Below are positions 7,005-8,980 of a stretch of DNA of 23,849 bases, in pieces. Every line of letters begins with the position of its first letter. The stretch's first letter is position 1. This DNA is from Candidatus Micrarchaeota archaeon. Lineage in GTDB: Archaea > Micrarchaeota > Micrarchaeia > Anstonellales > Bilamarchaeaceae. Where the stretch lies: assembly GCA_037440825.1 (NCBI GenBank), contig JBBITJ010000001.1:39828-63676 (forward strand), written 5' to 3'. The notes beneath the pieces are model-generated. The model ran no database searches and was not told the DNA's origin. It saw only the letters and a list, made by a program, of their open reading frames with translations. The position numbers and the translations under genes are program-made.

Positions 7005-7730
7005 CTATTCGCGGGATTTTCCTGAGAGGCGTTCCACCTCCTTGGCGAGCTGCTCGACCTTCTGCCTGAGCTGGACAACCTCGCTGTCCACGCTTCCGAA
7101 GCGTTCTTCCAGCACGTCGTGGGCTAGAAGGTCTATCTTCTCCGCGCCTATGGGCACAATCCTTGATTTGAGATTCACGGTGGTGCTGTTGGGCGGCATG
7201 TCGGAAACGACAAGGGCTTCTGCGCCTATGCGGCAATTGTCTCCGATAGTCTTGGAGCCAAGCACCTTGGCGCCTGCGCCGATAACCACTCCGTTGCCTA
7301 TCGTGGGGTGCCTCTTGCCGGTCTCTTTTCCTGTTCCGCCGAGCGTTACGCCTTGGTAGATGAGCACGTCGTTCCCCACTTCCGAGGTTTCTCCAATCAC
7401 CACCCCTATGCCGTGGTCTATCACCACCCGACGGCCGATCTTCGCGCCCGGGTGTATCTCTATGTGGGTGAGCATCTTCACAAGATGGGACATTATCCTC
7501 GCGGTGTTATACCATTTCTTTTCATAGAGCCTGTGGATGAGCCTGTGGAGCGTGAGCGCCTGCAATCCCGGGTAAGTGAGCAGGATTGTGAATGCGTTCA
7601 GGTTGTTCGCAGCAGGATCTTTCTCCCTTATTGCTTCTATATCCTCCTTCATCCTCCTGAAGAAGCCCAGCCTCTGCCCATTTCCTTCAGAACCTGAAAC
7701 GCGCCTAGTTTCCATATTTTTTTGAACCAT
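7005..7730 (-). CDS. cysE: Serine O-acetyltransferase
   Basis: DPAA...YPGL.A..LHR, EIHPGAKIG, IDHG.GVVIGET, QGVTLGGTGKE.GKRHPTIG, GAGAKVLG; C-terminal coiled coil; SD AGGTG upstream of ATG 7730. Confidence 0.95.
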   Translation of the reverse strand: MVQKNMETRRVSGSEGNGQRLGFFRRMKEDIEAIREKDPAANNLNAFTILLTYPGLQALTLHRLIHRLYEKKWYNTARIMSHLVKMLTHIEIHPGAKIGRRVVIDHGIGVVIGETSEVGNDVLIYQGVTLGGTGKETGKRHPTIGNGVVIGAGAKVLGSKTIGDNCRIGAEALVVSDMPPNSTTVNLKSRIVPIGAEKIDLLAHDVLEERFGSVDSEVVQLRQKVEQLAKEVERLSGKSRE

Positions 7731-7784
7731 GAATGCCACCTTTTGATTTTTACGACTTGAAATTACCGCTAAAACTAAAAGTTT

Positions 7785-7853
7785 TCAACAAAGGCAGCGG
7801 CAACAAGGCAAGCTGGCTGAAATAGAATAAGAGCGTACTATCGTGCCTTGCAT
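7785..7853 (-). CDS. Cys-rich leader peptide MQGTIVRSYSISASLPCCRCLC (candidate cysteine attenuator)
   Basis: 22 codons, 4 of the last 6 Cys (TGT TGC CGC TGC CTT TGT TGA). The stop is 54 nt upstream of cysE and the ATG is 31 nt from the first base of a TATA box. Confidence 0.75.
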   Translation of the reverse strand: MQGTIVRSYSISASLPCCRCLC

Positions 7854-7876
7854 GGTTCTAATTATGTGCTAAAGAG

Positions 7877-7884
7877 TTTTTAAA
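7877..7884 (-). promoter_or_regulatory. TATA box for the Cys leader/cysE transcript
   Basis: TTTAAAAA on the minus strand; the spacing places the TSS at or near the leader ATG (7853). Confidence 0.6.
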
Positions 7885-7905
7885 TGTGAGTTTAGGAAAA
7901 GAAAC

Positions 7906-7933
7906 CAAACTGAAGACTGGAAACGGAAAACCG
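7906..7933 (+). repeat. 7-bp tandem array (4 units)
   Basis: CAAACTG AAGACTG GAAACGG AAAACCG. Confidence 0.7.
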
Positions 7934-7966
7934 CAAAGTGCTTCAAAAATGGAAATAAGGAGAAAA

Positions 7967-8602
7967 TCAGATAGCCAGTACCCACTTCACATATCCGGGC
8001 GTCTCGCTCTTCGGAGCGCCTACATACTCGAAGTAAATGTCGAACTGGTTCTGGTCCTTGGGAAGCTGGACTGCGACCCAGCCGCTCACCGTGGCTCCTG
8101 GCTCTATGGGCTGGCTGAAATCCAGCTCAGGAGAGAATTTTGCATTCACGGCCATCGCGGAGCTGGTCTGGAATTTCAGACCCTTGCCCATCGCGTAGAT
8201 CTGCGGCGTCAAGATCTTAGCCTCGGTTCCGCTGTTGGTTACCTGGAAGTAAAGGAGGAGGTAGTTGGAGCTTGCTCCTGCGCTGAAATCCACGTTCGCG
8301 AGCGAGATGCCGTAGGATTCAGTTCCGTAGGTCACTGATTCCGCCTGCCCCAGCCTGCCGTTCTCTATTACGGTAGGAGGCTCTGCCGGAGTCACGTTCA
8401 CAGGCCAGTTCGTGACGTTGGCACCTGTCTGATTCGTCTGGTTCGTAACGTTCACGCCGGTCCCGTTGGTCTGGTTTGCTCCGTTGGTCTGGTTTGCTAT
8501 GTTTCCGCCGGGCGTGACGTTTTCCTCCGTTCCGCCTGGAACTATTACGCAGCCGGAGAACAATATGAGAGCCATGAAGCCGAGAATTATCTGCATCCGC
8601 AT
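7967..8602 (-). CDS. Lipoprotein with N-glycosylation-sequon-rich linker and C-terminal Ig-like (DUF4352-like) domain
   Basis: Signal peptide ending in lipobox LFSGC; repeated NQT/NVT/NGT sequons; V.N.G...I.PG.T.SGWV pattern; SD GGTGA before ATG 8602. The longer ORF-track start runs through the tRNA gene. Confidence 0.75.
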   Translation of the reverse strand: MRMQIILGFMALILFSGCVIVPGGTEENVTPGGNIANQTNGANQTNGTGVNVTNQTNQTGANVTNWPVNVTPAEPPTVIENGRLGQAESVTYGTESYGISLANVDFSAGASSNYLLLYFQVTNSGTEAKILTPQIYAMGKGLKFQTSSAMAVNAKFSPELDFSQPIEPGATVSGWVAVQLPKDQNQFDIYFEYVGAPKSETPGYVKWVLAI

Positions 8603-8712: not shown

Positions 8713-8715
8713 TAT

Positions 8716-8788
8716 TGCCACGGGCGGGATTTGAACCTGCGACCCTCCGGTCTTCAGCCGGATGCTCTCCCAACTGAGCTACCGTGGC
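8716..8788 (-). tRNA. tRNA-Phe (anticodon GAA), intronless, CCA not encoded
   Basis: Reverse complement GCCACGGTAGCTCAGTTGGGAGAGCATCCGGCTGAAGACCGGAGGGTCGCAGGTTCAAATCCCGCCCGTGGCA; anticodon loop CTGAAGA; one A-C mismatch in the T-stem. Confidence 0.96.
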
Positions 8789-8980
8789 AGTAGCTAGGAT
8801 TAGTGAAAGGAACTATGCTGTGATGTTTTTTAATTGTTTTCTATTCCAGAAGGCTGAAAACGTTCAATTCTATGCCTCCGGTTTTCTCCAATTCGCCCGC
8901 CAGCTCTGCCTCCATGCATCGCACTAGGTAGTCGCCGTTGTAGGAATGTATGCAGAACTGGAAACGACCATGCGCCCGCC

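Follow-up and report, generated by a model that had tools for sequence, protein, structure and literature searches.

A cysteine-codon mini-ORF preceding cysE in a Micrarchaeota genome is a candidate ribosome-stalling cysteine attenuator

Sensing of amino acids by a ribosome that translates a leader open reading frame (ORF) is a textbook bacterial mechanism. In the Escherichia coli tna leader (TnaC), Rho is blocked by a ribosome that stays at the end of the leader ORF, and free tryptophan is sensed via the nascent peptide, not via tRNA charging. We know of no archaeal homologue of Rho. In Archaea the transcription machinery is eukaryote-like, terminators lack hairpins and many mRNAs are leaderless, so that an attenuator in these organisms would reveal the coupling between transcription, translation and termination; if the reading proposed below is true, it would provide a compact cis-element for this long-standing question. 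The literature that we searched on leader-peptide attenuation was bacterial only: leader-peptide attenuation in an archaeon was not found there, nor was regulated archaeal oligo-T/aCPSF1 termination inside a 5′ leader.

The closest known system is the polycysteine leaderless small ORF (sORF) of the Ms5788A type. Mycobacterial sORFs of this kind, among them Ms5788A and Rv2334A, are described as a 'Cys ribulon' (Canestrari et al., 10.1101/834739). In that account the 3′ Cys tract of Ms5788A pairs with the Shine-Dalgarno (SD) motif of the gene that follows, control is exerted on translation, and Rv2334A precedes cysK1-cysE. Hairpin-free Cys-codon leaders of actinobacterial cys/cbs operons had been predicted by Seliverstov et al. 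(2005; PMC1262725), who suggested Rho- or tna-like control, and translation was later demonstrated to be the level at which the actinobacterial Cys leaders act (10.1101/834739). In Archaea, termination at hairpin-free oligo-T tracts and by aCPSF1 (FttA) is described (PMC13675443, PMC7515710, PMC11616081).

The locus analyzed here lies in a window (the whole stretch of DNA that was studied) of 23,849 nt from a Micrarchaeota genome (G000; 875 kb, 45 contigs, 95.6% complete). On the minus strand a leader sORF is followed by cysE (7730..7005) and then by glnA; upstream of the sORF are a tRNA-Phe gene (8715-8789) and a gene for a secreted protein that matches no known family. The following features were recognized in the sequence, with further evidence where it is named.

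7877..7884, minus strand: TATA-like octamer (three T, five A), at −31 to −24 from the A of the sORF start codon
7785..7853, minus strand: leader sORF of 22 codons plus stop, probably leaderless; a same-length orthologue is present in a second genome of the genus, G004
7788..7805, minus strand: Cys tract at codons 17-22 (Cys-Cys-Arg-Cys-Leu-Cys), where the ribosome is proposed to stall; five Cys in G004
7771..7780, minus strand: two runs of four T, two bases apart (7780..7777 and 7774..7771), a candidate hairpin-free archaeal termination signal
7005..7730, minus strand: cysE, serine O-acetyltransferase of 241 aa, the proposed regulated gene; TIGR01172 at 225.5 bits (cut-off 210.65), with a hexapeptide repeat

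The sORF ends in Pro-Cys-Cys-Arg-Cys-Leu-Cys-stop. As the first-pass annotation of this DNA had pointed out, Cys codons occupy four of the last six positions, and both TGT and TGC are used. The octamer at −31 to −24, together with the lack of an SD motif between it and the sORF start as judged by inspection of the sequence, is the arrangement that one would expect for a leaderless mRNA of an archaeon; the sORF transcript probably starts at or next to the start codon at 7853. The spacer from the sORF stop to the cysE start, on the same strand, measures 54 nt, and cysE has a good SD motif (7741..7736, minus strand). This spacer had been called U-rich and free of a strong hairpin, and it is so: it has its four plus four T, and not one hairpin-plus-T terminator was detected in the 7500-8100 interval, where shuffled sequences gave a mean of 0.6. 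The sORF peptide matched no Pfam or NCBIfam family. With Rfam 15, tRNAs alone matched at the gathering threshold, and no leader match was obtained at E values up to 1 in eight loci. The CysE protein also passes the EpsC model NF041874 (212.6 vs. a cut-off of 150).

As in TnaC, the putative sensing codons of the window adjoin the stop codon and are followed by an unstructured spacer on which a factor might load; the two systems differ in termination factor and in domain of life. The likeness to the Ms5788A type, as that system is described, goes further, with a leaderless start (putative here), a 3′ Cys run, a place as first ORF before cysteine-metabolism genes, a Cys tract predicted to pair with the next SD, and no terminator hairpin (10.1101/834739). 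Unlike Ms5788A, the leader studied here comes from a DPANN Micrarchaeota metagenome-assembled genome (MAG) and is preceded by a TATA-type promoter of the archaeal kind; the two sequences are not similar; the sizes are 22 codons plus a 54-nt spacer vs. 90 nt plus 97 nt; the window leader is not exceptionally stable (z 0.47); and its spacer contains T runs typical of archaeal terminators. The leader in the window is known from its sequence; for Ms5788A the architecture was demonstrated by experiment. The actinobacterial cys/cbs leaders likewise have Cys runs close to the end of a short ORF upstream and lack a conserved terminator hairpin (PMC1262725), but these are bacterial, and the corresponding archaeal factor would be aCPSF1/FttA, which is encoded in the source genome (contig C17; TIGR03675 at 831.7 bits, cut-off 580.2). 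Stem-less T runs after an ORF, with the factor gene in the genome, resemble archaeal oligo-T/aCPSF1 termination, although the signals known for that system lie at gene ends. With the classical trp and his attenuators, as outlined in 10.1101/834739, the leader shares end-product codons in a short ORF upstream of a biosynthetic gene, ribosome speed being the signal; it differs in having no terminator or antiterminator hairpins and in placing the regulatory codons at the very end of the ORF. The window sORF is most likely an archaeal counterpart of the bacterial Cys-leader sORFs. If the same design (C-terminal Cys codons in an ORF that starts without a leader, perhaps with masking of the SD) arose independently in Actinobacteria and DPANN archaea, it would be a clear case of convergence.

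The Cys cluster of the sORF exceeds what chance provides in this genome. Cys makes up 1.23% of the residues in long ORFs of G000, and at least four Cys within a 6-residue window occur in 8 of its 8730 ATG-initiated ORFs of 8 codons or more. When the 260 nt upstream of each gene were searched for a short ORF (4-60 codons) with at least three Cys in its last 8 residues (criterion A), 4 of 530 windows were positive, the cysE window among them. The genes behind the other three windows are not cysteine genes: one encodes a PHP domain, one is an NFACT gene and one is an ORF without a family.

Among 61 relatives, clear CysE matches (E 1e-40 or better) were found in G000, G004, G005, G003 and G051. 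G004 is a Candidatus Micrarchaeota MAG of the same genus as G000, and its CysE is 55-57% identical. It shows the same arrangement: an octamer identical to that of the window and placed 22 nt before the start codon, a 22-codon sORF ending in Pro-Cys-Cys-Cys-Cys-Leu-Cys-stop, a six-T run 22 nt downstream of the sORF stop, an SD block and cysE. Conservation is uneven along the leader. The first 15 nt of the sORF are identical at 15 of 15 positions, third codon positions included, the middle (nt 16-39) at 11 of 24, and nt 40-69 at 27 of 30. The 28 columns after the sORF stop are identical at 14, and the SD block, from column 98 to the cysE start codon, at 29 of 32, vs. 447 of 747 columns (60%) in the cysE coding sequence. 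Seven of the eight middle codons encode a different residue, and the Cys block differs by two synonymous changes and an Arg to Cys replacement that supplies the fifth Cys of G004. Conserved ends with a divergent middle are as predicted for a cis-acting leader, and not for a folded peptide. The T runs are not at aligned positions in the two genomes, and a conserved A-rich block precedes the cysE SD in both.

Several other roles for parts of this leader were considered and set aside. The A-rich block was rejected as a second promoter for a leaderless cysE, since its spacing misfits either in-frame start codon. A +1 frameshift at the sORF Leu(CUU)-Cys(UGU) was dropped, with the +1 frame stopping after four codons and the Leu codon being CUC in G004. 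The four Ser codons mentioned in the first-pass annotation are present (positions 8, 10, 12 and 14) but are not conserved, G004 having two, and we do not retain Ser, the CysE substrate, as a second signal.

The remaining CysE-bearing relatives differ. In G005 the order is tRNA-cysE-glnA, with a tRNA and a 15-bp inverted repeat in place of the sORF; in G003 and G051, cysK-cysE is present and a Cys-rich sORF was not found. The Cys-tract pattern occurred in 2 of 99 genomes of the taxonomic family (G000 and G004), both times before cysE. A longer sORF pattern gave one locus among species-representative genomes, and this is the G004 sequence. Seventeen metagenome loci that matched the sORF pattern were rejected as chance matches (triplet repeats, out of frame or with internal stops), and none has cysE. 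Homologues away from cysteine genes, which would have favored a metal-binding peptide, were seen in none of the family, species-representative and metagenome scans, and the true family has two members.

For more distant analogues, cysE and cysK loci were gathered from ∼400 genomes each, sampled at the phylum and class levels. cysE was found in 21 of 401 sampled genomes and cysKM in 64 of 401. The 93 loci yielded 76 distinct windows of 260 nt upstream of the first cys gene, after removal of those in which the match started beyond query residue 45, lay too near the locus end or had a cys gene less than 400 nt before it. Criterion A was positive in 9 of the 76 windows, in 0 of 71 windows of other genes (at least 200 aa) in the same loci, in 0 of the 76 reverse complements, and in 3 of 529 non-cys genes of G000. 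Fisher's test gave p = 0.002 against the same-locus controls and, with G000 left out (8 of 75), p = 5e-6 against the G000 genes, values that are overstated because kin are not independent. One of the nine matches (L144, 59 residues) looks spurious and another (L132, TTG start) is doubtful. A looser criterion (B, at least two Cys in the last 6 residues) was positive in 15 of 76 windows; among the controls it was positive in 7 of 71 (p 0.07), and among the reverse complements in 4 of 76. No Cys sORF was found within 300 nt upstream of cysS in G000.

The leader peptides belong to Micrarchaeota of seven taxonomic families and share no sequence except within the pairs G000/G004 and G440/G216; analogues in other families have in common the C-terminal Cys codons and the place before cysK or cysE, and nothing more. 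Twelve leaders were inspected, namely eight criterion-A matches (without L144) and L129, L131, L135 and L141, which match criterion B only; L092 and L149 were left out, as they belong to the second motif described below. By eye, an A/T-rich TATA-like octamer ends 21-24 nt before the start codon in 10 of the 12, and 9 of the 12 do not overlap an ORF of at least 90 aa. The Cys codons are always the last few of the leader ORF and adjoin a T-rich spacer; in most leaders the stop is directly followed by the same three bases and then by a pyrimidine-rich stretch. A run of at least five T within 50 nt after the stop was present in 8 of the 12 leaders, in 11 of 64 other cys windows (p 0.001) and after 59 of 518 long G000 ORFs (p 1e-5, both by Fisher's test).

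Folding of the G000 and G004 leaders, separately and as a consensus, predicted two helices of interest, P1 and P2, and a small hairpin, P3, whose 3′ arm is the second T run (7774..7771). The arms of P1 and P2 were recovered each time, in either single-sequence fold and in the consensus.

7844..7851, minus strand: P1 5′ arm, leader nt 3-10; 8 of 8 pairs invariant
7803..7810, minus strand: P1 3′ arm, leader nt 44-51, in the Leu-Pro-Cys codons
7790..7798, minus strand: P2 5′ arm, leader nt 56-64, in the Cys tract, predicted anti-SD
7735..7743, minus strand: P2 3′ arm, leader nt 111-119, which takes in the cysE SD

Of the 25 pairs in the consensus fold, none is broken, one shows a one-sided change and two show two-sided changes. 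Eight of the nine P2 pairs are invariant and one is altered on both sides, from U-A to C-G, by a synonymous change in a Leu codon and the sole substitution in the SD block. By a rough, post-hoc estimate, a lone SD-block substitution would hit the partner base with a complementary base by chance about 1 time in 90; G000-type leaders number two sequences, so that the covariation rests on two pairs. In G000 and G004 alike, leader nt 70 is the end of the best duplex formed with the SD window. As a statistical outlier the SD-masking helix had to be given up: its duplex (−13.3 kcal/mol) is average, 205 of 427 G000 genes pairing their SD upstream at least as well, and it is marginal against shuffles of its own leader (p 0.13 in G000 and 0.04 in G004). 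Whole-leader fold energies were no better than those of shuffles (z 0.47 in G000 and −0.66 in G004). In minimum free energy (MFE) folds of the ten other leaders, in some of which the gene start is misplaced, the paired SD-window bases all pair with the Cys zone in L119 and L129, pairing with the Cys zone is partial in L124 and L141, and it is absent in six.

We lean towards the reading that the sORF is a ribosome-stalling cysteine attenuator of cysE, with masking of the SD as its read-out. A ribosome would load on the 5′ end of the transcript, without a leader, at the start codon of the sORF (7853). Since Cys is specified by four of the last six codons, the supply of charged tRNA-Cys would set the time spent on 7805..7788. 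With ample cysteine, the ribosome would complete the sORF and depart; the vacated Cys tract (7798..7790) would pair with the SD region of cysE (7743..7735) while P1 closes the 5′ end, and with P1 and P2 formed the translation of cysE would be poor. Termination may occur as well on the exposed RNA, which has the T runs (7780..7771). Under cysteine shortage, with Cys-tRNA low, the ribosome would stall on the Cys tract, where with codons 17-22 in its A site it would cover the 3′ arm of P1 and the 5′ arm of P2 and keep both helices open; the open P2 would free the SD, and cysE would be made. Counting against the attenuator, no cysK was found in G000, which makes the benefit of inducing cysE doubtful, the fold energies are average, the covariation comes from two sequences, and six of the ten other leaders do not pair their SD window with the Cys zone in the MFE fold.

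The same sensor could also have a transcriptional read-out, in which the polymerase terminates at hairpin-free T runs, intrinsically or by aCPSF1/FttA, once the ribosome has left, and a ribosome stalled on the C-terminal Cys codons, 10-25 nt upstream, shields the RNA so that transcription continues into cysE, as an archaeal parallel to tna/Rho-type attenuation. This is close to what the first-pass annotation had proposed, a cysteine-responsive attenuator acting through ribosome-dependent access to the U-tract. Its cysteine part has gained from the analysis: the leader is conserved in G004 and enriched before cysK and cysE, so that a cysteine attenuator is well supported by sequence comparison. 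The U-tract part fared less evenly. The T runs found in 8 of the 12 leaders are better explained by termination than by SD masking; the six-T run of G004, the Cys codons that adjoin a T-rich spacer and the aCPSF1/FttA gene of G000 fit termination as well, the archaeal polymerase is described as terminating at oligo-T without a hairpin (PMC13675443), and Rho- or tna-like control has been proposed for the hairpin-free actinobacterial leaders (PMC1262725). Against this, the window has T runs of only four plus four, a pattern that is not typical of a gene end in G000 (two or more runs of at least four T follow 41 of 518 long ORFs); the runs do not align between G000 and G004; the second is base-paired in the consensus fold; and a stalled, uncoupled ribosome could equally raise factor-dependent termination, which would give regulation of the wrong sign. 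Sequence comparison at this locus points rather to the predicted pairing of the Cys tract with the SD. We consider SD masking the likeliest read-out at the window and U-tract termination, which seems unlikely as the main read-out but may operate together with masking, its main rival. A wider and tentative possibility is a Micrarchaeota-wide cysteine regulon, in which leaderless Cys mini-genes would gate U-tract/aCPSF1 termination and some lineages would add a +1 frameshift mini-ORF for CysK.

Two further readings dispense with cysteine sensing. If the ORF were untranslated, the conserved islands might be promoter-proximal or 5′-UTR elements (a regulator site or a riboswitch) and the Cys codons incidental; the nucleotide-level conservation, which includes the third positions of nt 1-15, and the conserved A-rich block before the SD would agree with this. 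We give it little credence, as Rfam returned nothing up to E 1, the fold energies are unexceptional, and incidental codons leave unexplained why Cys-ending ORFs occur on the sense strand only (0 of 76 reverse complements) in seven taxonomic families. About as improbable, in our judgment, is a functional Cys-rich micropeptide, be it metal- or thiol-binding or a modulator of CysE, that does not act in cis. G000 does have a second small poly-Cys ORF, of 47 residues with six consecutive Cys (contig C22, 6611-6754), and its place between a regulator and a heavy-metal P-type ATPase indicates that such peptides can serve metal handling. The window peptide, though, differs at 7 of 8 middle residues between orthologues while both of its ends are conserved at the nucleotide level, shares with its analogues just the C-terminal Cys codons and the position before cysK or cysE, has no metal, RiPP or maturation gene nearby and, as noted, belongs to no Pfam or NCBIfam family.

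A cysK or other PALP-fold enzyme was not found in G000, a 95.6% complete genome, in which PF00291 and TIGR01136 gave 0 matches. The PALP genes of G004 and G005 were rejected as cysK, both being trpB, and weak PF01053 matches were rejected as O-acetylserine sulfhydrylase, being aminotransferases. The three congeners G000, G004 and G005 keep cysE-glnA without a known O-acetylserine sulfhydrylase, and two of them have the Cys leader. Either cysK lies in unassembled DNA or O-acetylserine is used outside the standard pathway; one may speculate that it is shared with a host. A cysE leader in an 875-kb genome without cysK raises the question of how O-acetylserine is used and whether cysteine is shared with the host of this presumed symbiont.

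A second element was noticed at cysK. Fifteen loci share a motif of 15 nt, placed ahead of cysK or cysE or at the beginning of either gene, which as a mini-ORF would encode Met-(Glu/Gly/Ala)-Arg-(Asp/Gly)-Leu-(Leu/Phe)-Cys. In 12 of the 15 loci a zero-frame stop comes 1-4 codons past the only Cys codon; the +1 frame stays open for at least 18 codons in 15 of 15, vs. 3 of 15 for the +2 frame. The site consists of a Leu or Phe codon (YUU) followed by a Cys codon (UGC), with a G-rich, SD-like stretch before it, and resembles the bacterial RF2 site. It is also similar to Ty1-type +1 shift sites, where a slow, 'hungry' A-site codon is described as driving the shift (PMC5009743). From its sequence the second mini-ORF looks like a +1 programmed frameshift site, and non-canonical initiation at these loci may be an alternative; the literature searched yielded no report that connects cysK with programmed frameshifting. 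In three loci (L117 in G263, L131 in G440 and L135 in G216) the +1 frame is the whole of CysK (293-296 codons): the SD and ATG are in the zero frame, and the CysK frame has a Gly codon at the position of the canonical CysK Met. The poly-Cys leader and the motif occur in tandem in four genomes (G263, G440, G216 and G057).

A 15-nt motif, separate from the poly-Cys leader (the short ORF ending in Cys codons ahead of cysE or cysK), is conserved in 15 of the cysE/cysK loci collected from the sampled genomes (L numbers), where it lies ahead of cysK/cysE or at their start. Copies of this second motif were located as follows:

L117:1477-1500 (genome G263), second motif
L131 and L135, position ~1480 in gene orientation, minus strand, second motif
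L073:516, L079:509, L080:1399 and L005:112, second motif
L076, L082, L104, L121, L125, L137, L144 and L149, further loci with the second motif

Read as a mini-ORF, the motif encodes Met-x-Arg-Asp/Gly-Leu-Leu/Phe-Cys and contains a YUU-UGC site. The zero frame reached a stop codon within 1–4 codons in 12 of the 15 loci, and the +1 frame was free of stops for at least 18 codons in all 15. The whole of CysK is encoded by the motif's +1 frame in three genomes, where CysK lacks an in-frame start codon. The second motif is a candidate +1 programmed frameshift site, which would be driven by cysteine starvation.

Immediately 3′ of the stop codon, poly-Cys leaders and second-motif mini-ORFs carry an identical three bases, followed by a pyrimidine-rich stretch:

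L124, L117, L129, L131 and L135, shared post-stop bases and pyrimidine-rich stretch
L073, L076, L079 and L104 (second-motif loci), same post-stop arrangement

This resemblance hints at common descent of the two elements or at a shared downstream signal.

No cysK/cysM or any other gene for a PALP-fold enzyme was found in the whole genome containing the window (G000, 95.6% complete), and the PALP genes of the congeners G004 and G005 were identified as trpB. Weak PF01053 matches were assigned to aminotransferases. The cysE gene thus appears to be an orphan in G000, as well as in G004 and G005. Its product (window 7005-7730, minus strand) has one Cys in 241 residues, compared with 1.23% Cys in long ORFs. 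Bacterial CysE inserts its tail into CysK; here a C-terminal extension, coiled-coil-like in appearance, replaces that tail. Another contig of G000 begins within cysE (C40:2-586 and onward) with 100% identity to the cysE-glnA stretch of the window; this contig is either a redundant piece of the assembly or the outcome of a recent duplication.

Between tRNA-Phe and the leader stands an ORF that is absent from the corresponding place in G005, and that matched no Pfam or NCBIfam family:

window 7967-8599, minus strand, ORF of 210 aa whose N-terminus is signal-like and in which Asn-Gln-Thr motifs recur

In G005, which lacks the leader ORF, the sequence upstream of cysE (L003:490-530) holds a perfect inverted repeat of 15 bp as well as a tRNA gene with an intron; these may constitute a different control element.

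A further poly-Cys small ORF was observed outside the window:

G000, contig C22:6611-6754, minus strand, ORF of 47 codons in which six Cys stand in a row and the N-terminus is rich in Lys and Glu

It is flanked by a Cys-rich regulator-like ORF on one side and a heavy-metal P-type ATPase on the other, and probably encodes a metal-binding small protein.
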